A stretch of DNA of 36,242 nucleotides from assembly GCA_021786315.1 (NCBI GenBank), contig JAJYNN010000002.1, positions 166,160 to 202,401 on the forward strand, written 5' to 3'. The DNA is from a bacterium (GTDB lineage: Bacteria > Patescibacteriota > Microgenomatia > Daviesbacterales > UBA10151). Below are positions 7,699 to 36,242 of this stretch, piece by piece (the first letter of the stretch is position 1; each line of letters opens with the position of its first letter). Both the position numbers and the translations under genes were made by a program. The notes under the pieces were generated by a model. It searched no databases, was not told the DNA's origin, and saw nothing but the letters and a program-made list of their open reading frames with translations.

Positions 7699-7740
7699 TT
7701 CAGATTAAATCTCTTGAATTGAAAAGGTATGTTTTTAAAT

Positions 7741-7950
7741 GCAACTTTGGTGGCAAAGTTGCGCAAAGCCACTTGCAGTGAAAGTCGACCTAAAACCTTC
7801 ATCAGTTGTCTAGCGGGAACTTTACCCTTCGGAAATTCGGCTACTTCGTAGCGTCAGTTTCCGCTTTCCCTGCTGCCAACTGACTTGGTTTTTTAACGGT
7901 CTTTGTTTCAATGCAAGGGGAATAGAAGTTTGAGTTCCAGTGGGCAAAAG
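7741..7950 (+). ncRNA. Structured intergenic element, copy 2 of 3
   Basis: Hairpin gcaacttt-GGTGGC-aaagttgc (7741-7762). Closing helix cttgca (7772-7777) / tgcaag (7912-7917). Helices cagttg (7803-7808) / caactg (7877-7882) and cggaaa (7830-7835) / tttccg (7858-7863). Small hairpin gcta-cttcg-tagc (7840-7852). Confidence 0.5.
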
Positions 7951-8114
7951 AAAACTTTATTGACTTATCCACATTAGCAGAAATCCCGGTGGAAAAGAAA
8001 AAGTGTGTCTTGGATTAGGGCTTTAGAACAAGATAAATAGTACCTAGTATCCTCCAAAATAAACTACAAGCCTATGGTTTTTTGCTAGTAAAAAAACTAT
8101 AAGGTTATAAAATG

Positions 8115-8143
8115 TTGACAAATAATTTTTTCTGTACTAATAT
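8115..8143 (+). promoter_or_regulatory. Strong sigma-70-like promoter with no CDS downstream
   Basis: TTGACA (8115-8120), 17-nt spacer, TAATAT (8138-8143). The next ORF of 60 aa or more starts more than 580 nt downstream and has its own promoter. Confidence 0.55.
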
Positions 8144-8149
8144 CTAATG

Positions 8150-8550
8150 GATGTTTAATTTTGGCCAAAAGTCAAAGGGGAGACTCACCAGAATTGCCCA
8201 AAAACGGATTGATCCGGGTTTGGAGCAAGTGAGAAAACTTTTGACGAGCAGCGACCAAAGGTTAATTCTGATGGTTCGAGGCTAAATCAAATTATAGGGG
8301 AGACATCGAAAAAGGTTCCTTGGAAGCAGACGGACCAAGGAATCTTTTTCGAGTACATTAAAAAAGACCACAAAAAAGAGCATTTAGATAGTTACTACCC
8401 GCCAGCAACTGCGTAGCTGTGGGCGGGGAACTATCGCAAGGCTCTTTTATTTGAGCACAAAAAAGAGCATTACTACCGCAGACGGACTCGAATAGCAATG
8501 CCCTTTATTAATTTCGAGAAGATGATTTTCGAGCAGAAAAATCATCTTTC
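8150..8550 (+). ncRNA. Candidate small RNA locus: a series of long hairpins downstream of the 8115 promoter
   Basis: Four hairpins: 8171-8245 (nested helices), 8306-8352 (18-bp stem), 8374-8448 (24 bp in 4 helices) and 8518-8549 (10-bp AT-rich stem followed by TTTC). No ORF of 60 aa or more. Confidence 0.4.
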
Positions 8551-8632
8551 TAAATAATAAGATTTCACATTTTGGAAGTCTTGTCAATAGGTCTTTTTAG
8601 GGAAAAAGGGAGTTGGGATTGTGATTTAGGTC

Positions 8633-8663
8633 GGGAATCCATCTAGGGCAGGGATGGGTTCCC
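8633..8663 (+). promoter_or_regulatory. Conserved hairpin with a GGGCAG loop upstream of the first LPxTG gene
   Basis: gggaatccatc-tagggcagg-gatgggttccc. A counterpart at 15454-15482 has compensatory stem changes. Confidence 0.45.
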
Positions 8664-8725
8664 AACTTGAGTCATAATCCCTTTTTTGTTTCTTAACCCA
8701 TAACCTCAAACACCCCAGATTTTAT

Positions 8726-8754
8726 TTGACAATGTGTGTGTCTTATAGTATTAT
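8726..8754 (+). promoter_or_regulatory. Sigma-70-like promoter abutting the A1 start codon
   Basis: TTGACA (8726-8731), 17-nt spacer, TATTAT (8749-8754), then 7 nt to ATG 8762. Confidence 0.55.
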
Positions 8755-8761
8755 AACTTCA

Positions 8762-9655
8762 ATGAAACGAGCAGTTCTTGCCTCTATTGCTTTAATTGCA
8801 GGCTCATTAGCCTTTGCCGGCGGTGTCAAAGCCGGTCTAGTCCCATATTTTGGTGGTGAATATACCAACCTTTACGGTTCAGGTACTAGCGCCACTGTCC
8901 ATACTGGCACCAATTGTGATCCTAATTCTGGTAGCTGTAGCGGTCCCGCGGTTTATAAGTACGTTTGTGATGGCCGCACTACCGACTGCCGTTCCAATGA
9001 AAGTTTTGGCACCAGCGGAAGCGTTTACACCTCTGAGTGCAACAAAACTGTCCAATTAGACGTCTTTAGCGGAAGCTGCAGGGGGGATAATAACCAATGG
9101 AACTGCGGCGACAATTCACTTATAGATTACATGGTTTGGTATTCCGGAGCTTGCAGTGCTCCGGCTCCTACTGCCGTGCCGACTGCAGTTCCGACCATCC
9201 CGGTAATCGTGGCTACACCAACCCCTACCCCTATAGTTGAAGCTCCTGCGCCTATAACTACCCAGGAATGTCCTGCCGGTACAGTTTACGGGGGAATTTC
9301 CGGATCCAATATTATTTGTGTCCAGCAGGTCCAAGAGCAGACCCAAAACGCCGTGGCCAACGCCAACGCAGCTACCGGAGCTATCACTATCAATGTCCCC
9401 AACAATAACTCACCGGTTATCCGTTCAGTCAGTTTTGTAGTTCCTACTCCACAAGTAGTTTTGGCTGCTACTGAGCAAAAAACTGCTGTAGTGACCACTA
9501 CCGAGCTTCCTAAGACCGGTTTACCATTTGCCGCCTGGGGTTTAACCGGCTTGGCTCCTGTAGGTTTTGGGCTGAGAAAATTCGGCGCCTTTAAGAAACT
9601 TGGCGCTGATACCGCTTCCTTCATCTGGCAGAAACGGGAGTTCGAAAGGAACTAA
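8762..9655 (+). CDS. Secreted Cys-rich LPxTG-type surface protein, paralog A1
   Basis: Signal peptide MKRAVLASIALIAGSLAFAGGVKA, Cys-rich head, PT linker, CPAG..GSNIICVQQ..QNAVANANAATGAITINVP module, then LPKTG + TM + RKFG + FIWQKREFERN tail. ATG 8762 is preferred over TTG 8726, which is the promoter -35 box itself. Confidence 0.8.
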   Translation: MKRAVLASIALIAGSLAFAGGVKAGLVPYFGGEYTNLYGSGTSATVHTGTNCDPNSGSCSGPAVYKYVCDGRTTDCRSNESFGTSGSVYTSECNKTVQLDVFSGSCRGDNNQWNCGDNSLIDYMVWYSGACSAPAPTAVPTAVPTIPVIVATPTPTPIVEAPAPITTQECPAGTVYGGISGSNIICVQQVQEQTQNAVANANAATGAITINVPNNNSPVIRSVSFVVPTPQVVLAATEQKTAVVTTTELPKTGLPFAAWGLTGLAPVGFGLRKFGAFKKLGADTASFIWQKREFERN

Positions 9656-9661
9656 CCTCCT

Positions 9662-10528
9662 ATGTCTAGAGAATCTGAGCAGAGATTCCAAAAAGCTATT
9701 GTTGTGGGAAGAATTGCCTCAGCTGTAGTGGCTCCTGCAATACCTTTAGTGCTTCCACATTTTGTTAATGCTGATACTTCCGCTTCCAGTTCCCATACTT
9801 ACAATATCGGCAGTGAGTCACCGGTAGAGAAGCTGATGCGTGAGCTGGGTGTGGTAAGTGTTGCTGAAGCTGCTGATCCAGTATGCACTTTAAGAGAGGT
9901 GGAAATTGCCGGTGATAAACTAAAGAAAAATCCCCGCACCGGACAAAATTTTGGCGTTTTTGTTGTTGGCAGGGATAAAAAAACCGTTCTTGCCCAAAGT
10001 CGATTAGATGATCAAGGACATGCCAGTATACGCTCTATTACTGCTGCTTGTGATATGGAGAATGGGACAGCTTTAGGTTATTGGGTTTTTCTTGAGGACA
10101 GAGATAGACAGGGGAAAGAATTTGTTACGCCGAATAACGCTAAAGAACAAATAGACTCCGCTCTAATAGCGTTATCCACCGATTTTGAGCCTAAGACACC
10201 TCCCTTACCAACTGTAACCCAGGCTGCTAGTAAATTAGAGCCTACTACCACTCCAACAAAGACTCCGGTTGTTGGACCTGTTAGACCGGTTGCGACTGTA
10301 ACACCTGCTCCAAGCGGACCAGTTGGTCCAAGAAATCCCGGAACTGGGCGAACGGATTGGCAGCAAACACTCCTTGATTTCGTTGATACTCCAGCTCGGA
10401 TCCTTGCTCCGAATGCCAACTCAGGAACCAAAGTGTGGATAGATATTTTGGGAGACATCATCCTGCTAAGTGGTGTAGGCTTTGTTGCTGCGGGGATGGT
10501 TTGGGGAATCAGAAGGATTTTTCATTAA
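9662..10528 (+). CDS. Membrane protein B1 (N-terminal signal/anchor, Pro-rich segment, C-terminal TM), partner of A1
   Basis: N-terminal hydrophobic IASAVVAPAIPLVLPHFVNA and C-terminal TM ILGDIILLSGVGFVAAGMVWGIRRIFH. Starts 6 nt after the A1 stop. Confidence 0.7.
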   Translation: MSRESEQRFQKAIVVGRIASAVVAPAIPLVLPHFVNADTSASSSHTYNIGSESPVEKLMRELGVVSVAEAADPVCTLREVEIAGDKLKKNPRTGQNFGVFVVGRDKKTVLAQSRLDDQGHASIRSITAACDMENGTALGYWVFLEDRDRQGKEFVTPNNAKEQIDSALIALSTDFEPKTPPLPTVTQAASKLEPTTTPTKTPVVGPVRPVATVTPAPSGPVGPRNPGTGRTDWQQTLLDFVDTPARILAPNANSGTKVWIDILGDIILLSGVGFVAAGMVWGIRRIFH

Positions 10529-10530
10529 TT

Positions 10531-11439
10531 ATGAAAAAGATATTATTGACCATTATTGCTTTAACTTTGATTTTGGTTTTTAAAAGCCCTAGTTCAGTTT
10601 TGGCTTTTGATTTACCCGATGGTGATGTATGGGGTGATGGAGGAGTGGCTTGTAATGAAGTTAAAAGAACCCCCTATCCTCAATGTGCCGGTACTGTTGG
10701 TTTAGAGGATAAAACGAAATATTCTGTGGGAGATACAATCTTAGTAACCCCAATCGAAGATTGTTATGGGAACCTCATCCGTTATGACACTCAAAATTAT
10801 GGAAACTTAGGTCAGTGTGGTGTGCCTGCTCCGGGAACCGGAAGCACGGGATCTCCTTCTACAGTAGTCTCTGCTCCGGGTAGCGGCAGTCCGATGACCA
10901 TTCCGGTGGTAGTGGCTCCTTCCCAAAACCAAGAATCAATGTCCATTCCAATAGTTGTGGCTCCGGCAGCCCCTAACCAAAATCAAAACACTACACCAAA
11001 CCAGGGTACTGTCCCTGGTGTAACTCCCACACCAACTTTGGGGGTTGTTTCTCCTGTAACTTCTAATATCCAGTCTTGTCCGGCCGGCACCGTTTGGGGT
11101 GGGGTAGAGGGCTCAAATATCATCTGTGTCCAGCAAAACCAATCCCAGACCCAAAATGCCGTGGCCAATGCCAACGCTTATACTGGTGCCATCACTATCA
11201 ATGTCCCCAATACCCAAAGCGGACCCCGGGTAGTGGAGAGTGTTAAAGTCCTGCCGGCCCAAAATGTCGTTTTGGCCGGGACAACCACCCTTCCGAAAAC
11301 CGGGTTGCCGTTTGCCGCCTGGGGTTTAACCGGACTTGCGCCTTTGGGGTTTAAGTTGCGCCGGTTTGGCGATTTAACTAAACCGGGTACAGGACTTGCT
11401 CAATATCTCTGGCAAAGCCGGGAATTTAACCGAGGCTAA
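10531..11439 (+). CDS. Secreted LPxTG-type surface protein, paralog A2
   Basis: Signal peptide MKKILLTIIALTLILVFKSPSSVLA, CPAGTVWGGVEGSNIICVQQ..QNAVANANAYTGAITINVP, then LPKTG + TM + YLWQSREFNRG. ATG lies 2 nt after the B1 stop, so the 10435 extension is rejected. Confidence 0.8.
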   Translation: MKKILLTIIALTLILVFKSPSSVLAFDLPDGDVWGDGGVACNEVKRTPYPQCAGTVGLEDKTKYSVGDTILVTPIEDCYGNLIRYDTQNYGNLGQCGVPAPGTGSTGSPSTVVSAPGSGSPMTIPVVVAPSQNQESMSIPIVVAPAAPNQNQNTTPNQGTVPGVTPTPTLGVVSPVTSNIQSCPAGTVWGGVEGSNIICVQQNQSQTQNAVANANAYTGAITINVPNTQSGPRVVESVKVLPAQNVVLAGTTTLPKTGLPFAAWGLTGLAPLGFKLRRFGDLTKPGTGLAQYLWQSREFNRG

Positions 11440-22185: not shown

Positions 22186-22257
22186 GGGCCCGTGGTCTAG
22201 CGGTACGACGTCTCTATGGCATAGAGAAGGTGAGGGGTTCGACTCCCCTCGGGTCCA
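22186..22257 (+). tRNA. tRNA-Ala (anticodon GGC)
   Basis: Manual cloverleaf fold. Acceptor GGGCCCG/CGGGTCC with the G3:U70 alanine identity pair. Anticodon arm TCTCT-ATGGCAT-AGAGA. T arm AGGGG-TTCGACT-CCCCT. No encoded CCA. Confidence 0.88.
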
Positions 22258-22261
22258 CCCA

Positions 22262-22332
22262 GGGCTTGTAGGTAAACGGCATACCGGTACATTCGCATTG
22301 TACAGTTCCGGGTCCAATTCCCGGCAAGTCCA
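22262..22332 (+). tRNA. tRNA-Ala (anticodon CGC)
   Basis: Acceptor GGGCTTG/CAAGTCC with G3:U70. D arm GGTA-AACGGCA-TACC. Anticodon arm GTACA-TTCGCAT-TGTAC. T arm CCGGG-TCCAATT-CCCGG, an unusual T loop. Lies 4 nt after the previous tRNA. Confidence 0.8.
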
Positions 22333-22401
22333 CAAATACTTGTTTGTTGAGAAATACAGAAGGATTTACCCTAACTACTTACTGCTGATCCCTTAATACT
22401 A

Positions 22402-25681: not shown

Positions 25682-28600
25682 TTAAGGGGCTCCTGTTGCC
25701 GGAGCAAAGTTAATGGCTCCGTTGTTATAGACGTTTTTGACCTGGCTAGCTGTTAAGGCATAGTTATAAATCCTTACATCATCAATCTGGCCGGGAAATA
25801 ATTGCCCCGCTCCGTTACCATAACTGCCAATATTGGCAACTTCTCCCGCGGTGGATGTCGGCGTTCCGGAATCGCTGGTGGTACTAACTAAAACCCCGTT
25901 AACATATAATTTTGTAGTTGTGCCATCCCAAGTACCTACCACATAACTCCAGGTATTGATTGCCGCATCGTCAGTACTGTAGGTCCAGCTGCCGCTGGCA
26001 TCGGGATTAAAAGCCCATTTGCTGGTGTTGCTAATTTTTAGGCGGTATCCGTTGGGGGTTCCGTCTCCTCTCTGGAAAATTACATACCAACCAGTGTTAT
26101 TAGTAGGGTAAACCCAGGCGGAAACGCTAACCTGGCTTGTTTGATCCAAGCTGGTACCGCTACCTATGTTTACATAATCATCAGTCCCGTTAAAGTAGAG
26201 GGAAGAATTTCTTTTTCCGGTTGCTCCTTTACTCCAAGCGGTGGTATTAGTTCCGTCGCTGCAAGTTCCCATAGTCGTGCTTCCACTATGGGTACCGGAA
26301 TTGTTATTGCCGGAAGAATCATGCAAAGTGTCTCCCTGGCATTCATCAAACTTCCACCAGCCAACAGGCCCACCCCGGTTATAATCATAGGCAATTTGGG
26401 CAGGAGTACGAAGGTATTTATAAATTCTCATTTGGTCAATTGACCCGTTGAGCCAGTTGCCGTTGCCGTTTCCGCCTAGAAGGGCTGACAGGCTATTGTC
26501 TATGTTTCCACTGCGGCTGGCTATAGAGGTGGGGGTGCCGTCCTGTTTACCGTCAATGTAAATTGTCCCGTTCCCATCCCTGTCAAATGCGGCAACTACA
26601 AAATGCCATTTGTTATTATCAATCCTTGATGTTGAGGTAAAGGTTGTAAATCCTAAACTGTCTTCAATTGTCGGATTTAACGTACCGTCACTCTTAATTG
26701 TCAAGCGCCAACCGATATCTCCTCCGTAACCCGCGCCTTTTCTGATAATTGCTTTTTCCTCAGAAACTGTCCCTGTTTTTACCCAGGCCTGCACAGTAAA
26801 ATCTCCGGTTCCCATATCCAAATCTCCACTGGCAGGGTCTCCCAAATCCACATAATCATCAGTGCCATTAAATTTCCCAGCTTTACCTACTTTGCCAGAA
26901 GTCCAATGGGAACCGGTTCCGTTCCAGGCTCCGTCATTACCTGACCCGGAAGTGTCACAAACATCATTTGTTCCGCCAGAACAGGTATCATCCTTGCCTT
27001 CCTCAAAGTCCAAACGGGCTACCGGGGGAGCACAGGAAGTTGAATCTCCGGGCACGCAGTATTCCTGGTTGGCAGAATTTTTGTCATAAGAAGAATTGCT
27101 TCCCAAAGCCCCCATTTGTAAAGATGAACCATGATTGTACTCAAGTTTGACCTCATCAGCCGTTAAGGCATAGTTGTACATTTTTACTTCATCCATTGTA
27201 CCGGCAAAATATTCATTGGCGATATTGTAGCCAATAGTGACATCGGTGTTGTTGTCGGTAATTGAGACGGTGGCCGCGGTACTATTATTCAGAGCCCCAT
27301 CCAGGTAAAGTTTCAAGGTTGCTCCGTCCCAGGTTAAGACCAGATGGTGCCAGACACCAGCCGGAAGTTGGGCTGGACTTTGAGTAGAATAGACAACTGT
27401 GTCATTACCTTTGACGATTCCTCTAATGGCGTAAGAGTCGGTACTTCTTTGATATTGGAGCTCGAAGGGAATGCCGGTTGTACTCCAGGCGGAACGCTTG
27501 GAAATAATTGTTCTCCAGCAGGTGGCGACCGAACAATATGAATCCAACTTGGTCCAGGCGGAAATGGTAAAGCCGGTTAGCCCGTCAAAGGTCGATTCAT
27601 TTGATGTACTGACATAATCGTCGGTCCCGTCAAAGATTAAACCTTTCCCGTATTTACCTGCTTGGGTCCAGCCGGAGGTGGCAGTGGCAGGGGAGGTCAT
27701 GTTGGTTAAAGTGCCATTTAGAGCCGAACCGCCGTTGCCGGAGTTGTGAGCGGTTGTACCTTGTCCCTCATCAAATTTCCAATAACCAAGAGGGGATCCC
27801 ACTGGTGAACCCACGTTAGGATGGGATCCGTTCATATCCGAGACAATTTGTTTTGATGTCCGGGCATAATTATAAATTTTAATATCATCAAGCAAGCCAT
27901 TATAAGGGTAGGCTCCGTTGGTATAGGCACCAATTAAGATGGGATTGGCACCAAGATCCATACTTTTGTTTAAGGTAGTGCTATTGATCTGGACACCGTT
28001 TTGATAGGATCTAAGCACTGATCCATCATAAGTAAAGGTAATATAAGTCCAGGTATTATTACTAAGATTATTCGTTACTACGCTGTTGCCTCCGCTGTTA
28101 CCGCCGCTTTTGAAATACATCACTAAATTGCTGGCAGTATTAGCTTTCCAGATTCCCCAGCTGGTACCCCACTTAGTGATGAGGTCCTGTTCATTTCCGC
28201 TAAAAGCTTTGGGATTCATCCAGAAAGAAACAGTTAACATTCCTGTATCCAAGCTATTGGCATCAGCCACTGATACATAATCATCCGTACCATCAAATGA
28301 ACAGGCACCTCCGTATTTACCCTGGGCTTGAGAACAGTCAGTATGGTTATAGGTAGTCCCGTTGTTACCGTTACCTGAAATATCAACAATAGTCTGGGAA
28401 GCCCCTTTAACATGATCATCCATCTTCCAGTATCCCACTGGTCCCGGTGCCCAATTGTAGAGGTTGGAAACCTCAGTAGGTGAAAGGGCCCGGTTATAAA
28501 TCCTGACTTCATCAAGTTTGCCGTTAAAATCCCGGTTGGCCGTGGGGCTCCCGTAACGGGCGCCAAGGTAAAGATTATTGGCGCTGGAATCAATGGCGCC

Positions 28601-31048
28601 GCTTGCAGCATCGCTGTTTTCCAAAACGCCGTTTAAGTAAATCTTCATCATTGATCCGTCGTAAACCCCTACAAGGTGATACCAGGTACCAGTGGAAAGA
28701 GACGTAGAAGTGTATTTAGAGTAAGCTTTTGTGCCTGATTGATAAATGGCAAACTCAACCTTATTGCCGTTAATCCACATAGCGTAAGCTCCCGAGGCTT
28801 CGCTTGAATCCTCACCCTTGCTGATGATCCGGTCATAAGAGTTTGCATCAACGCTGGCGGATAAGTTAATCCAGGCAGAGACAGTAATGTTACCGGTAAT
28901 ATCTAAGGAAGAACCGGTCCCGGCATCAACATATTGGGTGCCGTCAAAAGAACCTCCGTTGCCGAACTTACCTGTGGCAGCGCCTGCAGGTTTAGTGCAA
29001 CCTACACCCGCGCAGCCTGCTGTACCATTATTGCTGTTACCTGAAGCATCTAAAACATCTGCAGAGGAGCCGGACCAGGAAGCCTCATCCATTTTCCAGT
29101 AACCTACTAGGCCATTGGATAAATAATCTTGGGTGGAGGCCCCCAAAACCGCTCCTGCGCCTGAATGGGCAGAGGCATTGGCTTTACCGGCTAAATAATC
29201 AGTTTTAATCTGGGCTGCACTTCTGGCATAGGGATAAATCTTGGGTTCATCAATAAAACCACCAAAGTAATCTTGGTGAGCAGCTGATACAAGTCTGTCA
29301 CCAAACTCAAGCGGATCATTATTGGCTGAATAGACATAGCTTGGTGTTAACAATGATCCTTGGTCAAGTTTTCCATCGATATAGATTGTGATATTTTGGT
29401 TGGCTGCAACAGCAGTATCAGTTGTTATTGTTACAGAATAATAATGCCATTTATTATCGTTAACATCACTACTACTAGCCCTTTGAACATTTTGACCAGA
29501 ACCATTTTTAATTTGTACGCCTAATTTATTGGCAGTGGTATTATTGACATTAATTAACCACCCAGCTCCTTTGGCCATTAAGTATCCACCTGAGGTTTGG
29601 CCAGTTCTAAACCAACCAGAAGCAGTGAAGGTAGTATTGGCAAAATCAAAATTAGACTCGTTTGCATTAGATATATAACTACTTGATCCATCAAAATATA
29701 AACATTTGCCGGCCACACACCTGTCTTCCGGCTGCCAGGTGGGGAGGGTGGCTCCCGATAATGTTCCATCATTATTAGAAGATGAAGAATCTTGGGCATT
29801 AGTGCCTTGGCCGTCGTCAAATTTCCAGTATCCTACCGGTCCCGGGCCTTGTTCCTCAGTCCCTGCTGAGGTTGTGGGCTTGGAAATGGTTGAGGCATAA
29901 CTGGCAAGATTGCCGGGACTGGAATAAAGCTGGGAGATTTCGGAGGTAGACAATGCCCGGTTGTAGACCCTGACATCATCAATTGACCCTGACCAGCCCC
30001 GGTTACCCATGCTTTCGTTGTCCATGCCAATCCTGACACCTGAGGATTCGGTCAGGGTAGCCCCGGCAGTGGTATCGGTAGCCGAGCCTTCCTGAACCCC
30101 GTTAACATAAATGTAGAGTTTATTGTCAGAAGTACTCCTGACACCCATGACATGGATCCAGGCATTGGAAGAGGCGTCGGTGGTAGACTCCACATACGGG
30201 GAATTGGTGCCGTCAGTAATTTGGAAAACGATATGCCCCGAAGGGGTAGTTTCAAAAAACCGGTAACCTTTGGTGCTGTATTTATTGACAATATACCGGT
30301 AATCGTCCTTGACTGAAGTTTTAATCCAGGCACTGACTGTCATGGAACTGGTGGTAATGTCGGCGGCACTGGTAGGGGAAACACTGACGTATTGGGAAGT
30401 GGTACTGCCGTTGCCTGCAGCTCCTCCTGTAAGGCTGGCGGCATTGCTGTATTTGCCTGCAGCTCCTCCTGTGGGGACAGTACAGCCTGTATAATAGCAA
30501 CTGGCTGTGCCGTTGCCCCCGCTTATTGAATTATCTTTAACTTCTCCGGCAGTCCCATTCCAGGAAGCCTCATTTAGAGCCCAATAGCCAACTAAACCGT
30601 TAAATAACCTGAATTTATTACTATCCGAGGCAGCCGGTGCTGTGGGGTTGCCGTAGTACATATACATGGTATAGGTGGTGGTGTTTTTAGGGACCAAATC
30701 AGCCATCACCCAGACTTTGGTGGAGGCGGTGCCGCACCCGGAATCTATATAGTAGGGGAGCAGCTTTCCCCCCTGGTTGGTAAACCTCAAATCCTGGCAG
30801 GAAGATTGGAATTTACCGGTGGCGGAAGTATCAACGGTGACCAGGGTTTCCAAATCAGTGATATCGTTGGCGCTGGAGGTGATAGTCAAAGTAATGGCTT
30901 TCCGGTAAAGCCAATTTTCATTAAACCAGGCAGCCATTGCGGGTTTGGAAAAATATGAGTAAATAAATATCCCAATTCCGGCAACCAAGAAGGCAGACAA
31001 AAGAAAGAGAACACTCTTAATTTTCAATTTAAAATTTACAATTTTCAT
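25682..31048 (-). CDS. Giant surface protein G1: signal anchor, DUF2341-like domain, seven LamG (Laminin_G_3) repeats
   Basis: N-terminal MKIVNFKLKIKSVLFLLSAFLVAG. WLYRKAITLT...LRFTN is DUF2341-like. Seven repeats each end in (I/L/M)D(D/E)(V/P/I)(R/K)(I/V/M)Y(N/P/K)(R/Y)(A/L)(L/R)(S/T)xxxx, e.g. DDVRVYNRALSTSEISQLY. The ATG at 31046-31048 is preferred over 31066. Confidence 0.88.
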   Translation of the reverse strand: MKIVNFKLKIKSVLFLLSAFLVAGIGIFIYSYFSKPAMAAWFNENWLYRKAITLTITSSANDITDLETLVTVDTSATGKFQSSCQDLRFTNQGGKLLPYYIDSGCGTASTKVWVMADLVPKNTTTYTMYMYYGNPTAPAASDSNKFRLFNGLVGYWALNEASWNGTAGEVKDNSISGGNGTASCYYTGCTVPTGGAAGKYSNAASLTGGAAGNGSTTSQYVSVSPTSAADITTSSMTVSAWIKTSVKDDYRYIVNKYSTKGYRFFETTPSGHIVFQITDGTNSPYVESTTDASSNAWIHVMGVRSTSDNKLYIYVNGVQEGSATDTTAGATLTESSGVRIGMDNESMGNRGWSGSIDDVRVYNRALSTSEISQLYSSPGNLASYASTISKPTTSAGTEEQGPGPVGYWKFDDGQGTNAQDSSSSNNDGTLSGATLPTWQPEDRCVAGKCLYFDGSSSYISNANESNFDFANTTFTASGWFRTGQTSGGYLMAKGAGWLINVNNTTANKLGVQIKNGSGQNVQRASSSDVNDNKWHYYSVTITTDTAVAANQNITIYIDGKLDQGSLLTPSYVYSANNDPLEFGDRLVSAAHQDYFGGFIDEPKIYPYARSAAQIKTDYLAGKANASAHSGAGAVLGASTQDYLSNGLVGYWKMDEASWSGSSADVLDASGNSNNGTAGCAGVGCTKPAGAATGKFGNGGSFDGTQYVDAGTGSSLDITGNITVSAWINLSASVDANSYDRIISKGEDSSEASGAYAMWINGNKVEFAIYQSGTKAYSKYTSTSLSTGTWYHLVGVYDGSMMKIYLNGVLENSDAASGAIDSSANNLYLGARYGSPTANRDFNGKLDEVRIYNRALSPTEVSNLYNWAPGPVGYWKMDDHVKGASQTIVDISGNGNNGTTYNHTDCSQAQGKYGGACSFDGTDDYVSVADANSLDTGMLTVSFWMNPKAFSGNEQDLITKWGTSWGIWKANTASNLVMYFKSGGNSGGNSVVTNNLSNNTWTYITFTYDGSVLRSYQNGVQINSTTLNKSMDLGANPILIGAYTNGAYPYNGLLDDIKIYNYARTSKQIVSDMNGSHPNVGSPVGSPLGYWKFDEGQGTTAHNSGNGGSALNGTLTNMTSPATATSGWTQAGKYGKGLIFDGTDDYVSTSNESTFDGLTGFTISAWTKLDSYCSVATCWRTIISKRSAWSTTGIPFELQYQRSTDSYAIRGIVKGNDTVVYSTQSPAQLPAGVWHHLVLTWDGATLKLYLDGALNNSTAATVSITDNNTDVTIGYNIANEYFAGTMDEVKMYNYALTADEVKLEYNHGSSLQMGALGSNSSYDKNSANQEYCVPGDSTSCAPPVARLDFEEGKDDTCSGGTNDVCDTSGSGNDGAWNGTGSHWTSGKVGKAGKFNGTDDYVDLGDPASGDLDMGTGDFTVQAWVKTGTVSEEKAIIRKGAGYGGDIGWRLTIKSDGTLNPTIEDSLGFTTFTSTSRIDNNKWHFVVAAFDRDGNGTIYIDGKQDGTPTSIASRSGNIDNSLSALLGGNGNGNWLNGSIDQMRIYKYLRTPAQIAYDYNRGGPVGWWKFDECQGDTLHDSSGNNNSGTHSGSTTMGTCSDGTNTTAWSKGATGKRNSSLYFNGTDDYVNIGSGTSLDQTSQVSVSAWVYPTNNTGWYVIFQRGDGTPNGYRLKISNTSKWAFNPDASGSWTYSTDDAAINTWSYVVGTWDGTTTKLYVNGVLVSTTSDSGTPTSTAGEVANIGSYGNGAGQLFPGQIDDVRIYNYALTASQVKNVYNNGAINFAPATGAP

Positions 31049-31074
31049 TAAATTTTCAAAACACAATTTTCAGT
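31018..31074. repeat. AT-rich word-repeat block overlapping the G1 start
   Basis: ttaattttcaatttaaaatttacaattttcattaaattttcaaaacacaattttcag. The first 11 codons of G1 (MKIVNFKLKIK) are encoded by it. Confidence 0.5.
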
Positions 31075-31449
31075 CTAGTCTCTTAAGGAAGAAACAATTT
31101 TCTGAAATATCATTGTTAATTCTTGTGCTTCTTGTCCTAGCAGCTCAATTTCTGTTTTCTTCTCTGGAAAACAAACAACCATCATTCTTAGCCAGTGTTT
31201 AGTTTCCTGGGCTTCTTTCTTGCAGATAAAAATCTTATTTTGAAAGTCTTTTTTTGAGCTTGCGCCGTTTGCTTCCATATAATTGGCTCCAATACTGGTT
31301 CCCGACCTAATAATTTGGCTTATAATTGGTGTTGAAATTAAATCTGATCTTAAGTTTTTACAAAAATTGATGATTTGTTCCCCAAACCGGCTTGTGCGTT
31401 CTTCAAGATCGTATTTTTTGGATTGTGAATTGTTTAATTGGTAATTCAT
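31075..31449 (-). CDS. Four-helix-bundle protein (TIGR02436 family, the so-called 23S rRNA intervening-sequence protein)
   Basis: Family-typical motifs RSGTSIGANYMEANGASSKKDFQNKIFICKKEAQETKHWL. Markedly AT-rich relative to the flanking genes. Confidence 0.82.
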   Translation of the reverse strand: MNYQLNNSQSKKYDLEERTSRFGEQIINFCKNLRSDLISTPIISQIIRSGTSIGANYMEANGASSKKDFQNKIFICKKEAQETKHWLRMMVVCFPEKKTEIELLGQEAQELTMIFQKIVSSLRD

Positions 31450-31483
31450 TGTAAATTAAAAATTAATAATTGAAAATTAGCTC

Positions 31484-34400
31484 TCATGGATTTCCTCCTG
31501 TTGTTGGGCCGTAACGGACCGCAAAGCCCTCGTTGTAAACATTCTTAATTTGGGTAGCAGTTAAGGCATAGTTGTAAAACCTGACATCATCAATCTGGCC
31601 ATTGAAGTAGCTGTTCATTGTGCCTGTATTCCCGATATGGAAGTGGGTGTAAGAGAAGTTGCCGGAAGTTTGGGAGTCGGAAGTATCCAAAACACCGTTA
31701 ATATATAGCTTCCTTGAGGAATTGGGGGAATCCTGGATCGCCGCAAAATTGTACCAGGTGCTGTTTGAAACTGTTTTGTTGCTGCACAATTCATGGTCAC
31801 CCGCATTATAAATATGCATGCATAACTTATTGCTCCCATTAACATAAACCCTAAAGTTATAGTCATTATTGGCATCGGGGGAGTCGGAAATAATTGTTCT
31901 CAAGCCTGAGCCTGCCGCATAAAACCACCCGGTGGCGGAATAAGTCTGGGTGGAGGCATTGGTGGAGGGGCCGGAGGTATTAACATAATCATCAGTGCCG
32001 TCAAAGTTAAGTGATGCTCCGTATTTGCCGTTTCTGCCGGTATACCAGGCGGTGGTGCCGGAAGATGAGCAGGTTCCGGCACTAGTTTGAGTGCCTGTAC
32101 CGCCGATACTAATTGATCCGCTGTAGCCGTTACCTGAAGCATCATTGGCTGTTAGTCCCTGGCATTCATTAAACTTCCACCAGGCCAAAGGCCCACCCTT
32201 ATTGTAGTCATAGGCCACCTGGGCAGCAGTCCGGGCATAATTAAATATCCTGATTCCGTCAAGTTGACCATTAAGAGGATAGGCTGACCCAGCTACATCT
32301 CTGCCAAGATATAAAGTATTGTTATTAGTACCAAAAGAAACAGTGGCGCTGGTATTGGTGGTTTGTAAAACTCCGTCAACGTAAATTTTCATAGTATCGC
32401 TGGTGTCGTCAAAGGTGCCTGCCACATAGTGCCATTTACCATCAGCTACAGAAGTTGTACCATCAGTATAATAAACTGAAGTAGTTGCCCACGCAGCTCC
32501 TGTCCCAATGAGCATTGTTATAGATCCGTTTACGGCTCCGCCTACATCAGCAGAACTAACAACACTTAGCTGATAAGCATTAGTTTTTCTGGCAACTACC
32601 TGAGTGCTGGTGGAATTTGTTTTTACCCAACCTTCTATTGTTATACCTCCGGTTATATCAAGGTCGTTGATGGCAACCGAATCATCTGTGCCATTGAAGT
32701 TTCCTGCCCAACCGGATTTTCCTGGTACCCAGTGTTTAGTGCCGGTTCCGTTCCAGGCTCCGTCATTACCGTTGCCGGAAGTGTCACAAACATCATTTGA
32801 GCCTCCGGCGCAGGTATTATCCCGGCCTTCGTTAAAGTTCCATTCAGCAACCGGCGCCGCACAGGAAGTGGAATCCCCGGGCACGCAATATTCCTGGTTG
32901 GCAGCGCCCTGGGCGTAAGTTGTATTAGTCCCGCCGGCCCCCAGCGTTATGCTTTTACCCTGGTTCATATCCAGTTTGACCTCATCGGCAGTTAGGGGAT
33001 ACTCATAAACTTTAACCTCATCGGCTGATCCCACCAGGTAGTTGCTGGCTACCCAGGAATCCCGGCCTATCTTTAAGGATGACTGGTACTGGGTGGTTTC
33101 TGTGGCCTGCATGTTAGAAAACGTCCGGGTTTCACAAAGCTTGCCGTTTAAGTAGAGGGACATGGTTTGGCCGCTCCAATCCCTGACGGCGGCAATGTGC
33201 ACCCATTGGCTGGTATATCCCGAGTAATTACATTGGGCGTAGCCGACTGTTCCGCTTCCTACGAATTGATAGTCAAAATTAATATACCCGGATTTGGCTC
33301 CCCACCATTGGTTAATTGAATAAAATCCGATATTCCAGCCACGGGAGCCGGCTCCCCAGGCGCCTTCGGAAAGGACGGTTTCTCCGGTGGTGGCGCTGCC
33401 GACATTTATCCAGAATGTGGCGGAGAAGCTTTTTTGGGTAAAGAGGTTGGTGGGTTCGGAAGTGTCAACATAATCCCCGCCGTCAAAACTTAAGGCCCTG
33501 CCGTATTTGGCGTTGGGAGTCCAGGCCGGGTCATCGGTGGAGGCGTTAGCGTCTGCACCCCGGGTTCCGTTGTATCCCGATCCGGCGCTGCCAGCATTAT
33601 TGACAACTTGTCCCTGGCCCTCGTCAAACTTCCACCAGGTAGCAGGTGAACCCACAGGTGAGCCAACAGAGGGATGCCCTCCGTTCATATCCGAGACAAT
33701 TTGTTTTGGTGTCCGGGCATAGTTATAAATTTTCAAGTCATCAATTAGGCCGTTAAAATAACTCCAGCCGCTACTTGATGGAGAATAATATCCAATGACA
33801 GCATTTCCTGAATTACTGACACTACTAGTTACAGTAGTGATGCTTTGAGGTGTGCCGTTTGGGGAACCGTCAACGTAAACAGCGCTGTTACCGCTTCTGT
33901 CAAATGTAGCTGTTATGTGATGCCATTTACCGTCTGTGACTGTGGAGGAGGATTTGGTGGTAACGGCAGTGGTACCGTCTTTGACAAATGCCCAAACAAG
34001 ATTATCGTTGCCAACCCCAAGCAGATATCCGGTATTACCATCTGATGATCTTTTATCAATAATATCTTGGTAGGCTCCTGTGGCGCTGGTTTTGATCCAG
34101 GCGGAGATGGTAAAACTACTAATGCCAAAATCCAGGCTACCGTTTGCTGGATCAGTCACATCTACATGGTCGTCTGTGCCGTTAAAACTACAGCTCCCAC
34201 CATATTTTCCGGGAGATTTCGAACAGTCAATACCTGTGCCGGCAGTTGTCCCATTGTTGCCGTTACCTGAAGAATCAACAATGGTTTTGGAGGCCCCTTT
34301 TATTCCATCATCCATCTTCCAATAACCAACAGGTCCCGGTGCCCAATTGTAGAGGTTGGAAACCTCAGAAGGGGAGAGGGCCCGGTTATAAATGCGGATC

Positions 34401-36242
34401 TCATCCATTAGACCAGTAAAACCGTATCTGCCGTTATATCCGTCTTCCCCGATATATACATCGGAACTGGATGTGGCGATTGTGGAAATTGATCCTGTTA
34501 GGGTACCGGCCTGGTTAACTCCATTAAAGTAAATGTTGGACACCCCGTTATTAAAAGTTGCGACTATGTGGGTCCAGGTAGAGAGTGGAAGAGTGGAGGT
34601 GGTGGTGAGGTTTTGCTTGGTATCTACTCCATTACTTAAAGATAAAGTAACTGTTTTATCACTTTCGACACGCAGCTCATATTGGCTGCCGGAATATCCT
34701 CCAGCGATTGTTCCTTTGGTGAGAATACCGGCTTTACTGGAAGGAGCGCTCGTCAAATTAACCCAGGCAGAAAGGGTGACTTGAGAGGTTGGAGTATTTA
34801 AGCTGTCACTGCTTGTGACCTGAACATACTGGCCATTAGTGTCTGTAGGATAGGCTCCGTCTCCGGTAAAACTCCCCCCGTTGCCAAATTCACCGGTAGC
34901 GGTAGTGGGGATGCCGTTGCCTGTGCCGGTTTGTTTGGCCTGACCGTTGTTGCCGTTGCCGGAGGAATCAATGACTTCCCCGGTAGTGCCATTCCAGGAA
35001 GCCTCATCCATCTTCCAGTAACCCACCAGGCCGTTGGAAAGGTAATCCTGGGTTTTGGCACCTAAAACTGTGCTGGTCCCGGCATGGTTGGCAGCTCCCA
35101 TCTTCCCGGCATCATAATCTGTCTTAACCTGGGCTGCACTCCGGGCATAGGGATAAACTTTGGGTTCGTCAATGAAACCGCCGAAGAAATATGCCCCCGG
35201 AGCCGAGGTGACGGTAGCTCTGGTTGCGATAGTAAAAGGCTCAGTGGTGGTGACCTGGGTGCCGCTGAAAGTAGCCGTTGTTTCACCAACCTTGCCGTTG
35301 ACATAAACCCTTAAGGTAGTGCCGTCAAAATCCCCGACCACATAAGCCCAGTTGTTCAAGGATAAAGCCCCGGTGTATTTGGCGATATAGACCGTTGTGC
35401 CGGTATTGACGGTTAAAAACTCTACGTCCGTTCCGTTAGTGCGGAGTTCGTATTGGGTTCCGGCGGTATTCCCGTTACTTTTGGCCATGATGACATGGTA
35501 GGAGGTGAGGTTGGTGGGCCTAATCCAGGCGCTTAAGGTTATGGCTCCGGTAACATTTAAGCTTGAACCGGTGCCGGCATTAATATAGTTACGTGTCCCG
35601 TCAAAGCTTAAGCATTTTCCGGAAATACACTGGCTTTCCGGCTGCCAGGTGGCACCAATAATTTGGCCATCATTGCCATAATCACAAGTGGAGGTGGAAG
35701 CGTGAGCAGTCCCATTCCATTTGTGTAGACCATTGCCGGTCAAGGATCCATCACAATAGGGAGTAGCGGATGAGGCTTGTTCCAACTGGACTCCGTCAAG
35801 ATAAATAGTTCCTGCATAAGTGCCTCTGGTATTGATATATATCACCACACTCGTATCTGTTGCCCCGGTGGTAAAAGTTACGGTTTTTTTAGTCCAGGCG
35901 CTGGTGGCGGAGAAATTATTGCTATCGGAGAGGATGTTACTGCTGCTGCCGTTAACCTGGATTTTAAAGTAACCATTAGGATCTTTATAAAATGTAGTAA
36001 AAGTGTAGGTGGTGTTTATGGAGGTGGAAATTGATACATAAGTTCCTTTATAGGCAGTAGCCGGGGATAAGGTGACACTCATAGCATAGTTTCCAAAAAG
36101 GCCGCCGCTGACTTGGGCAATACTGGAGTTGGCGCTGTCAGTATTCCATCCTGTTGTATTTGTTTCAAAAGAAGGGTTAGTAACTAAGTTGGTGGTAGTC
36201 CCGGTTTTTTGCCAAGCGGTGTTTTTGGCGGCATAACCTTGT
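31484..36242 (-). CDS. Giant surface protein G2 (5' end outside the window): CBM4_9-like N-terminal region plus six LamG repeats, colinear paralog of G1
   Basis: The frame stays open upstream of the listed ATG through base 36241 (..NLVTNPSFETNTTGWNTDSANSSIAQVSGGLFGNYAMSVTL..). Six LamG repeat ends (e.g. MDEIRIYNRALSPSEVSNLY) occur in the same order as G1 repeats 2-7. Confidence 0.88.
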   Translation of the reverse strand, partial: QGYAAKNTAWQKTGTTTNLVTNPSFETNTTGWNTDSANSSIAQVSGGLFGNYAMSVTLSPATAYKGTYVSISTSINTTYTFTTFYKDPNGYFKIQVNGSSSNILSDSNNFSATSAWTKKTVTFTTGATDTSVVIYINTRGTYAGTIYLDGVQLEQASSATPYCDGSLTGNGLHKWNGTAHASTSTCDYGNDGQIIGATWQPESQCISGKCLSFDGTRNYINAGTGSSLNVTGAITLSAWIRPTNLTSYHVIMAKSNGNTAGTQYELRTNGTDVEFLTVNTGTTVYIAKYTGALSLNNWAYVVGDFDGTTLRVYVNGKVGETTATFSGTQVTTTEPFTIATRATVTSAPGAYFFGGFIDEPKVYPYARSAAQVKTDYDAGKMGAANHAGTSTVLGAKTQDYLSNGLVGYWKMDEASWNGTTGEVIDSSGNGNNGQAKQTGTGNGIPTTATGEFGNGGSFTGDGAYPTDTNGQYVQVTSSDSLNTPTSQVTLSAWVNLTSAPSSKAGILTKGTIAGGYSGSQYELRVESDKTVTLSLSNGVDTKQNLTTTSTLPLSTWTHIVATFNNGVSNIYFNGVNQAGTLTGSISTIATSSSDVYIGEDGYNGRYGFTGLMDEIRIYNRALSPSEVSNLYNWAPGPVGYWKMDDGIKGASKTIVDSSGNGNNGTTAGTGIDCSKSPGKYGGSCSFNGTDDHVDVTDPANGSLDFGISSFTISAWIKTSATGAYQDIIDKRSSDGNTGYLLGVGNDNLVWAFVKDGTTAVTTKSSSTVTDGKWHHITATFDRSGNSAVYVDGSPNGTPQSITTVTSSVSNSGNAVIGYYSPSSSGWSYFNGLIDDLKIYNYARTPKQIVSDMNGGHPSVGSPVGSPATWWKFDEGQGQVVNNAGSAGSGYNGTRGADANASTDDPAWTPNAKYGRALSFDGGDYVDTSEPTNLFTQKSFSATFWINVGSATTGETVLSEGAWGAGSRGWNIGFYSINQWWGAKSGYINFDYQFVGSGTVGYAQCNYSGYTSQWVHIAAVRDWSGQTMSLYLNGKLCETRTFSNMQATETTQYQSSLKIGRDSWVASNYLVGSADEVKVYEYPLTADEVKLDMNQGKSITLGAGGTNTTYAQGAANQEYCVPGDSTSCAAPVAEWNFNEGRDNTCAGGSNDVCDTSGNGNDGAWNGTGTKHWVPGKSGWAGNFNGTDDSVAINDLDITGGITIEGWVKTNSTSTQVVARKTNAYQLSVVSSADVGGAVNGSITMLIGTGAAWATTSVYYTDGTTSVADGKWHYVAGTFDDTSDTMKIYVDGVLQTTNTSATVSFGTNNNTLYLGRDVAGSAYPLNGQLDGIRIFNYARTAAQVAYDYNKGGPLAWWKFNECQGLTANDASGNGYSGSISIGGTGTQTSAGTCSSSGTTAWYTGRNGKYGASLNFDGTDDYVNTSGPSTNASTQTYSATGWFYAAGSGLRTIISDSPDANNDYNFRVYVNGSNKLCMHIYNAGDHELCSNKTVSNSTWYNFAAIQDSPNSSRKLYINGVLDTSDSQTSGNFSYTHFHIGNTGTMNSYFNGQIDDVRFYNYALTATQIKNVYNEGFAVRYGPTTGGNP

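Follow-up and report, generated by a model that had tools for sequence, protein, structure and literature searches.

In the par system of the Enterococcus faecalis plasmid pAD1 (RNA I/Fst and RNA II) and in the txpA/RatA and bsrG/SR4 systems of Bacillus subtilis, the mRNA of a small open reading frame (ORF) is faced by a convergent small RNA (sRNA), and the two transcripts share a terminator hairpin. ColE1 RNA I/RNA II and R1 CopA/CopT are antisense copy-number controls that use kissing hairpins, and enterobacteria contain anti-sRNAs, or RNA sponges, such as AgvB/AsxR and 3'ETS-leuZ. The B. subtilis gene sda encodes a 46-residue checkpoint protein that inhibits the sporulation histidine kinases, and its promoter is under the control of DnaA boxes; to our knowledge, sda has not been described as being under the control of an antisense RNA. 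Here, we describe a locus that recalls each of these systems in part. It occupies the gap between positions 7951 and 8725 of a 36,242-nt stretch of DNA (hereafter, the window; contig JAJYNN010000002.1, 166,160–202,401, assembly GCA_021786315.1) within a 781-kb genome. An initial annotation of this gap had described it as gene-free and as the site of one candidate sRNA. We consider it probable, at roughly 60%, that the gap is instead a cassette of two convergent, overlapping transcription units, a plus-strand RNA and a minus-strand sRNA of ~94 nt, and at the same rough probability the best-supported reading of the cassette is a mutually antisense RNA pair or switch that is possibly responsive to DnaA.

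In this proposal, the plus RNA would start at ~8150, behind a DnaA box and two direct repeats through which DnaA and a repeat-binding factor would control its promoter. In Daviesbacteria, the plus RNA would be translated without a leader into a basic 44-residue protein, and it would either end at a hairpin, H1, or read through antisense across the sRNA gene and the sRNA promoter to a second hairpin, H4. The opposing unit would use a TTGACA/TGn extended −10 promoter to produce the ~94-nt sRNA, which carries a hairpin, H3, and an invariant 3' terminator hairpin. The plus RNA and the sRNA would neutralize one another. Their first contact may be loop–loop kissing between the apical GUCCGUCUGC of the sRNA and GCAGACGGAC, whether the copy in H1 or that in the antisense of the core, and a second kissing contact may join the sRNA loop CUGYCY to GGGCAG in H4. 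Spreading of the contact would yield a ~95-bp duplex, a potential substrate for double-strand RNases, and convergent transcription may additionally interfere with the sRNA promoter. Plus-strand transcription, together with the small protein where it is present, would in this way be set against the level of the sRNA.

The locus resembles par, txpA/RatA, and bsrG/SR4 in its convergent RNAs, complementary terminator loops, and extra complementary repeats, and loop contact followed by duplex formation would be expected here as well. Unlike these systems, it encodes a peptide that is basic and not membrane-active in appearance; it is chromosomal, single-copy, syntenic, and class-wide, often with no detected ORF; and a DnaA box and direct repeats precede its plus promoter. 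As in ColE1 and R1, a short, structured, and probably constitutive antisense RNA would meet a longer regulated transcript through hairpin loops, but no replicon, rep gene, or origin accompanies this locus, which lies 120 kb from oriC. The likeness to sda lies in the conserved DnaA box ahead of a gene for a very small protein and, in Daviesbacteria, in a histidine kinase gene two genes upstream; no sequence similarity to sda was detected, however, the ORF is not universal, and we treat the analogy as only a lead. Finally, like the anti-sRNAs and sponges, the plus RNA exposes a short sequence complementary to the functional loop of an sRNA, which it could titrate, although here the RNAs lie on opposite strands of one locus and would overlap in full if the plus RNA reads through.

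We examined the locus in a strand-corrected alignment and in a survey of 58 sequences (the Daviesbacteria set), consisting of the window and 57 further loci. Each of 57 species-level genomes contains a single exact copy of the 39-mer core, GAGCATTACTACCGCAGACGGNCTCGAATAGCAATGCCC; where the title of a genome is informative, it names Candidatus Daviesbacteria, Microgenomates, or Patescibacteria, and many other genomes carry the generic title "uncultured Gammaproteobacteria". The order of parts is fixed across the 58 sequences: DnaA box, promoter TTGACAAATA, small ORF, optional H1, variable insert, core, H3, TTGTCAA, and H4. A G·U pair on one strand is an A·C mismatch on the other, and the fold energies of the two strands were compared at each hairpin to locate the strand under selection.

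This comparison assigns the central part of the locus to the minus strand. The predicted sRNA (8459–8552, minus strand) consists of the 5' hairpin H3, an A/U-rich linker, and the 3' terminator hairpin, followed by U6. This segment folds at −32.3 kcal/mol (z = −5.8) on the minus strand versus −21.4 kcal/mol on the plus strand. H3 (8548→8519; loop CUGCUC) corresponds to an AT-rich stem that had been taken for part of a plus-strand sRNA. The stem is present and 100% complementary (8519–8529/8538–8548), but the strand was wrong, as 51 of 55 distinct H3 sequences have their more stable fold on the minus strand. Compensatory changes were found at 10 of its 11 pairs, and none of 500 shuffles reached the observed covariation score.

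The 3' hairpin is the invariant core (8503→8465, minus strand), which reads GGGCAUUGCUA[UUCGAGUCCGUCUGCGG]UAGUAAUGCUC and runs into U6. The core is identical across the 57 Candidatus Daviesbacteria species, and it folds ~10 kcal/mol better on the minus strand in both distinct core sequences. Among 28 class-level sequences of the 3' stem, pairs 2, 7, and 8 alternate between G·U, A-U, and G-C, with G·U there in about half; the lower stem shows compensatory changes at pairs 1, 9, 10, and 11, with zero A·C on the minus strand. Above the lower stem, a conserved internal loop, 5'-YUCG/GCGR-3', is followed by an upper stem that covaries and by an apex that varies. The core is flanked by AAAAAA on its upstream side and by UUUAUUAAUUU on its downstream side, which gives it U6 on the minus strand and the features of a bidirectional intrinsic terminator. 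Terminator character does not explain the sequence invariance of the core or the conservation of the minus promoter; the invariance and the internal loop together suggest that an additional protein or other partner may be recognized. The single-stranded linker is not conserved between families.

A promoter for this sRNA is present on the minus strand (8587–8559), with −35 TTGACA (8587→8582), a 17-nt spacer containing TGn, and −10 AATCTT (8564→8559). The −35 TTGACA was found in 55 of the 55 loci where the motif was sought. Its plus-strand complement, in the form TTGTCAA, lies 73–83 nt past the core at almost every locus, most often at 77–79 nt, and TGn with a −10-like hexamer follows 14–15 nt past TTGACA; the hexamers after TGn in distant homologues are TAATCT, TATTGT, TATTTT, TAATTC, and similar. 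Each family that we examined retains TTGACA, TGn, and a hexamer with an almost constant spacing. Transcripts from this promoter would have their 5' end near 8552, in a conserved AGAAA, and their 3' end near 8459. This promoter, the 44-residue ORF (below a 60-residue cutoff), and the 29-bp terminator hairpin at 8615–8681 had all escaped the initial annotation.

The locus is widely distributed. A DNA search recovered it in 40 of 61 relatives, among them the majority of the family's genomes, each of a separate genus, with the best-conserved block at 8459–8520 (90–97% identity); within its own genome, it is single-copy. We built a covariance model of the sRNA from 24 sequences, which matches 8456–8553 of the window on the minus strand at 95.8 bits. 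Of 301 Microgenomatia genomes, 199 gave a match, representing 160 of 235 genera; almost all had one full-length hit, and the strict filters used make these counts lower bounds. In a search of 151 genomes across the phylum, the model gave two marginal matches outside Microgenomatia versus three in-class. The cassette is therefore present in about two-thirds of the sampled Microgenomatia genomes, at a minimum. Rfam 15 returned nothing at gathering score in this region of the window or in 14 homologous loci, and relaxing to E ≤ 10 yielded chance hairpin matches only. To this extent the initial annotation is supported: the RNA locus is real, conserved, and structured, and it matches no Rfam family. 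Full-text literature searching found nothing relevant to it, and the regulatory RNAs of the candidate phyla radiation (CPR), to which the ultra-small Microgenomatia belong, appear little studied.

The plus strand is also structured, folding at −200.9 kcal/mol over 8150–8700 (z = −11.4 versus shuffled sequences, compared with z = −8.7 for the minus strand). At the far end lies H4 (8615–8687, plus strand), a 29-bp hairpin at 8615–8681 with loop UAGGGCAGG (8644–8652), followed by U6. In the window, H4 has a plus-strand fold energy of −45.5 kcal/mol (z = −8.2) against −29.0 kcal/mol for the minus strand, and folding favors the plus strand in 44 of 49 Daviesbacteria-set sequences (minus in 4) and in 11 of 12 distant genomes. 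Over 52 distinct sequences, its plus-strand pairs comprise 523 Watson–Crick, 62 G·U, and 11 A·C combinations, with two to six pair types per position; the loop GGGCAGG is kept in the Daviesbacteria set. In distant genomes, H4 lies within a longer stem followed by a U-run, a pattern from which we identify H4 as the putative terminator of the plus-strand RNA. Seven relatives (L027, L029, L034, L055, L057, L067, and L071) have second H4-like copies downstream of H4 or an H4 with a hairpin inserted in its loop, for example GGGGACUAAUC-AGCACACCCUUUUGGCUUCGCCAAAAGCAGGUCAGG-GAUUAG. Additional fragments resembling the core or the H2 hairpin described below occur in some Daviesbacteria, and the locus is a hot spot for local duplication of its own hairpin modules.

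Two further hairpins lie between the small ORF and the core. H1 (8306–8352, plus strand) is terminator-like and has the loop AAGCAGACGGA, which is complementary to the apical loop of the minus-strand sRNA. Its 18-bp stem (8306–8323/8335–8352), which had been predicted, is 94% complementary. Folding of H1 favors the plus strand in 26 sequences and the minus strand in 4, with energies of −26.4 (plus) and −22.2 kcal/mol (minus) in the window. Marked by GCAGACGG upstream of the core, H1 is present in 38 of the 58 sequences; its stems differ among the listed genomes while the loop is kept, and in Daviesbacteria genomes that lack H1 the ORF ends 5–17 nt before the core. The 10-mer gcagacggac, reported as a repeat, is found as GCAGACGGAC at 8326 and 8478, and this loop motif is conserved in relatives. 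H2 (8369–8453, plus strand) duplicates part of the core and bears an apical hairpin that varies, and it accounts both for the internal tandem duplication and for the long hairpin (given as 8374–8448) of the initial annotation. The corresponding 16-mer repeat extends to 19 nt (8366–8384 and 8453–8471, 95% identical). The H2 module, AAAAGAGC-AUUUA-GA[variable]UC-GCAAG-GCUCUUUU, occurs in 7 of the 58 sequences, and the energies of its two strands are nearly equal (−32.0 versus −32.6 kcal/mol).

The first 135 nt of the plus unit contain a leaderless ORF of 44 codons (8151–8285, plus strand; MFNFGQKSKGRLTRIAQKRIDPGLEQVRKLLTSSDQRLILMVRG). In the Daviesbacteria set, an ATG usually 6–11 nt past the −10 element opens a frame of 41–62 codons ending in EQVKKVLxxxDQKLILMVRG. 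Entropy at codon positions 1, 2, and 3 is 0.82, 0.52, and 1.38, respectively, over the final 19 codons, and synonymous codons are exchanged at conserved residues: an invariant Ile is encoded as ATA, ATT, or ATC, an Arg as AGA, CGG, AGG, CGC, or CGA, and Val codons switch as well. This third-position variation and codon switching argue that the ORF is coding and that its product is a protein under purifying selection, presumably read from a leaderless mRNA. A nested hairpin that had been proposed at 8171–8245 does exist as an inverted repeat, but it falls within this ORF, and its cgga-ttga-tccg tip is made up of codons for K-R-I-D-P. The reported repeat at 8177 and 8297 corresponds to GGGGAGAC-containing 16-mers at 8169 and 8289 that are 81% identical; the 8-mer pair itself is no more than chance would produce, and relatives do not conserve it. 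The statement that 7699–8725 holds no ORF of 60 residues or more was accurate, and the case illustrates that a "gene-free" gap can conceal a leaderless small ORF as well as an RNA gene on the opposite strand.

A profile search recovered 380 homologues of ~45 residues, all unnamed or "hypothetical" and none with a Pfam domain, and Pfam and NCBIfam scans of the 44-residue protein gave no family match. Class-wide, the small ORFs occur in two related forms, class A ending in EQIKKLGSLGQELVIMRMG and class B ending in EQFVKLKEKGLSIPVVTL. The protein is rich in Lys and Arg, with a longest hydrophobic run of ~5 residues (LILMV), across the 49 distinct Daviesbacteria-set sequences (window included) and in classes A and B; no transmembrane segment was found in the Daviesbacteria-set sequences. 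AlphaFold2 models a lone helix (residues 22–43), which was too weak for a fold search.

The plus promoter (8115–8143) was correctly identified in the initial annotation. It comprises −35 TTGACA, a 17-nt spacer, and −10 TAATAT, matches the consensus at 10 of 12 positions in a promoter scan, and is conserved as TTGACAAATA in 57 of the 58 Daviesbacteria-set sequences. The conserved block upstream of it opens with the DnaA-box consensus TTATCCACA (7965–7973, plus strand). Around this box, GTTATCCACA is conserved in at least 75% of 55 aligned Daviesbacteria-set sequences at every position and in at least 90% at 9 of 10 positions, and the exact 9-mer lies ~150 nt upstream of the plus −35 element in most Daviesbacteria loci. 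A consensus DnaA box at a conserved position is what is expected of a DnaA-regulated promoter, and the plus promoter may be under DnaA control. Immediately upstream of the −35 element are two direct repeats (8063–8104, plus strand), ACTACAAG at 8063–8070 and ACTATAAGG at 8096–8104, whose positions keep ACTACAGG and CTATNGG in Daviesbacteria and which are candidate transcription-factor sites.

We surveyed 58 further loci at the class level, drawn from many families and all outside the Daviesbacteria set, with strict pattern criteria that make the following counts lower bounds. The minus-strand promoter (TTGAC[AT]) was detected in 51 loci, the H3 loop CUGYYY in 45, and H4 in 40. radA lies within 3 kb in 45 loci, usually ending 150–500 nt upstream and co-directional with the plus RNA, and the gene for a PIN-TRAM protein accompanies the cassette in 10. 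A plus promoter was detectable in 32 loci; 20 of these carry a DnaA box (TT[AT]TCCACA) upstream, in most cases 104–109 nt from the plus −35, and 21 have CTAYNGG within 30 nt of the −35. A small ORF of at least 30 residues was found in 14 of the 58 loci. Several families have a plus promoter whose start would lie only ~30 nt before the sRNA terminator, or one that leads into an ORF-less leader. In its ancestral form, the cassette thus seems to have run from radA through a DnaA box, the plus promoter, and the antisense of the sRNA to the H4 terminator, with the small ORF appearing as a frequent yet dispensable part.

The loops of the two RNAs are complementary: CUGCUC in H3 of the sRNA can pair with GGGCAG in the loop of H4. 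Most H3 loop variants (CUGCUC, CUGCCC, CUGUCC, CUGCCU, and UUGCCC) differ by C↔U exchanges that still allow pairing with the invariant GGGCAG, and families with no separate H4 have UAGGGCAG as the antisense of their own H3. This pattern of loop conservation is suggestive of kissing-loop recognition. Several observations weigh against the antisense-pair reading, beginning with this one: C↔U opposite G is also the commonest type of mutation, and the argument for kissing is suggestive and falls short of proof. A plus RNA that reads through is already fully complementary to the sRNA, and the extra loops of H1 and H4 are not explained by pairing of the two RNAs. The invariance of the 39-nt core in Daviesbacteria exceeds what antisense pairing would seem to need. 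The small ORF, found in at least 14 of 58 class-level loci under strict criteria, cannot be the universal target. AlphaFold confidence for the 44-residue protein is low (pLDDT, the predicted local distance difference test score, is 63.5). Finally, the −10 element of the minus promoter in the window is weak, and because it matches only three of six consensus positions, a simple promoter scan was silent there.

The excess conservation of the core and its internal loop lead to the alternative that we take most seriously, while still holding it to be improbable: the sRNA would be chiefly a protein-binding or trans-acting regulator, the plus RNA, controlled by DnaA and another factor, would act as an anti-sRNA, a sponge, or an off-switch through transcriptional interference, and the ORF would merely accompany the cassette in particular lineages. 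In favor of this, it is the sRNA that is universal, at about one copy in each of its 199 genomes, and its 3' hairpin, with a conserved sequence, the YUCG/GCGR internal loop, a covarying upper stem, and a free apex, looks like a typical protein site. The absence of the ORF from many families, where the plus start falls so close to the sRNA terminator, fits this alternative, as does the complementarity of the invariant H4 loop to H3. A candidate partner protein was not identified, however, and a blastn-short search of the genome gave no trans target of 15 nt or longer (the longest match off the locus is 14 nt, E = 0.2, at chance level). The single-stranded linker varies between families, and where the small protein is present, purifying selection makes it no mere passenger. 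A classical type I toxin-antitoxin system in the style of par, txpA/RatA, or bsrG/SR4, in which the small protein would be the toxin and the convergent antisense sRNA would restrain its mRNA by way of a bidirectional terminator common to both, has the same architecture: an ORF of at most 60 residues, a convergent sRNA over its 3' end that would have its own promoter, complementary terminator loops, and extra complementary repeats. It is nonetheless unlikely, and more so than the sRNA-centered alternative, as the peptide is basic and hydrophilic, with a five-residue hydrophobic stretch and no transmembrane segment, and is not a membrane toxin by these features. Moreover, the cassette is single-copy, syntenic, and vertically inherited throughout the class rather than patchy or multi-copy, and many lineages keep both RNAs with no detectable ORF.

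Two further explanations have very low probability. In the first, which builds on the initial annotation, the promoter at 8115–8143 would drive four hairpins as a single noncoding plus-strand sRNA of ~540 nt from ~8150, which would serve as the leader or regulator of the downstream LPxTG surface-protein cluster. The strong plus-strand fold fits this model, the promoter and the H4 terminator bracket exactly the 8150–8700 span, and a read-through plus transcript belongs to the antisense-pair reading too. The first 135 nt are a conserved coding ORF, however, and the minus-strand fold preference of H3 and the core, together with the conserved minus promoter, means that the locus is not a single plus-strand sRNA. 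Nor does the proposed link to the LPxTG cluster hold: the downstream genes differ among relatives, the conserved neighbors are instead the PIN-TRAM gene and radA, and the LPxTG gene has its own promoter (8726–8754), as the initial annotation itself had stated. We give slightly less credence still to the view that the locus contains no dedicated RNA gene and is a bidirectional terminator with hairpin insertions resembling repetitive extragenic palindromes (REP) or miniature inverted-repeat transposable elements (MITE), or else a DNA-level DnaA-binding or origin-like element. The A-run upstream and T-rich run downstream of the core, the additional H4-like or H2-like copies in some relatives, and the conserved DnaA box are all compatible with it. 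Dispersed copies would be expected of REP or MITE elements, but the locus is single-copy in its own genome and holds a fixed syntenic position over ~160 genera; its TTGACA and TGn promoter motifs keep a fixed spacing, and selection on its folds is strand-specific. The cumulative GC-skew minimum and a DnaA-box cluster put oriC 120 kb away.

The antisense pair may have a wider role. The position of the cassette beside radA and a DnaA box suggests that it is connected with the control of replication or repair, and one speculative possibility, to which we assign low probability, is a Microgenomatia-specific, DnaA-responsive RNA switch in which plus-strand transcription beside radA titrates, or is titrated by, a class-wide sRNA that binds a conserved partner. 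Such a switch, if it exists, would tie a downstream response to the state of replication or repair by RNA–RNA kissing, with no protein regulator, and in some lineages its plus RNA would additionally have acquired a small effector protein. With this cassette, at least one RNA family and one small-protein family are newly defined. Its cis-elements are unusually clear (both promoters, the DnaA box with its fixed spacing, and two complementary loop pairs) and provide a defined entry into gene regulation in organisms with ~0.8-Mb genomes.

We also considered known structured RNAs and replication elements as identities for the locus, and each was rejected. The skew minimum coincides with a cluster of four DnaA boxes at ~50–57 kb of contig C3, whereas the locus is at 174 kb, where the skew is steadily rising, and it is not oriC. 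The GGGGAGAC motif and the lack of a transfer-messenger RNA (tmRNA) in the ARAGORN output had raised the idea of a tmRNA, but Rfam places this RNA elsewhere: RF00023 matches a full-length tmRNA at C3:76775–77173 with 96.6 bits, which ARAGORN missed genome-wide. The RNase P RNA lies at C1:38192, and the 6S RNA model (RF00013) matches nothing in the genome. A signal recognition particle (SRP) RNA was considered from the missing SRP match in the genome and the presence of GGAAGCAG- and AGGGCAGG-like strings; the locus gives no SRP match at E ≤ 10, and its hairpin apex is variable. Regular-expression searches for SRP helix 8 were uninformative. The bacterial small SRP model RF00169 matches 12 of 14 control genomes but neither this genome nor any of 30 relatives and 120 other genomes of the phylum; its absence from all 121 genomes phylum-wide is therefore not class-specific. 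The large SRP model RF01854 likewise has no match in this genome. Either the SRP RNAs of the CPR are very divergent or the prefilter misses them.

The conserved neighbors of the cassette lie upstream. In the window, radA is the truncated first ORF (3–1007), and between it and the locus are a cupin gene, a LytR_C-domain gene, a response regulator, a histidine kinase, and the PIN-TRAM gene. In one Microgenomates relative (L042), the PIN-TRAM gene is divergent from the cassette yet adjacent, and in a few distant genomes (L105, L106, and L109), radA is inverted yet adjacent. Just past the PIN-TRAM gene, 7731–7894 is structured, with an inverted repeat (7802–7819/7866–7883) followed by TTTTTT. This structure is not conserved in relatives and is probably the terminator of the PIN-TRAM gene; its best resemblance, to the c-di-GMP-I-UAU riboswitch, is not significant (E = 0.29; 19.5 bits, where the gathering score is 65.9).

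Downstream of the locus, 8726–11439 contains three ORFs of 309, 288, and 334 residues. The 309- and 334-residue products share a C-terminal module, CPAGTV(Y/W)GG..GSNIICVQQ...NAVANANA.TGAITINVPN, followed by LPKTGLPFAAWGLTGLAP; neither has a Pfam match, and from this module they look like paralogous sortase-anchored surface proteins. Two very large ORFs of 1794 and at least 1532 residues occupy 25682–36241 on the minus strand. Tandem tRNA-Ala genes (anticodons GGC and CGC) lie 2 nt apart at 22186–22333 and are the sole ARAGORN finds in the window.

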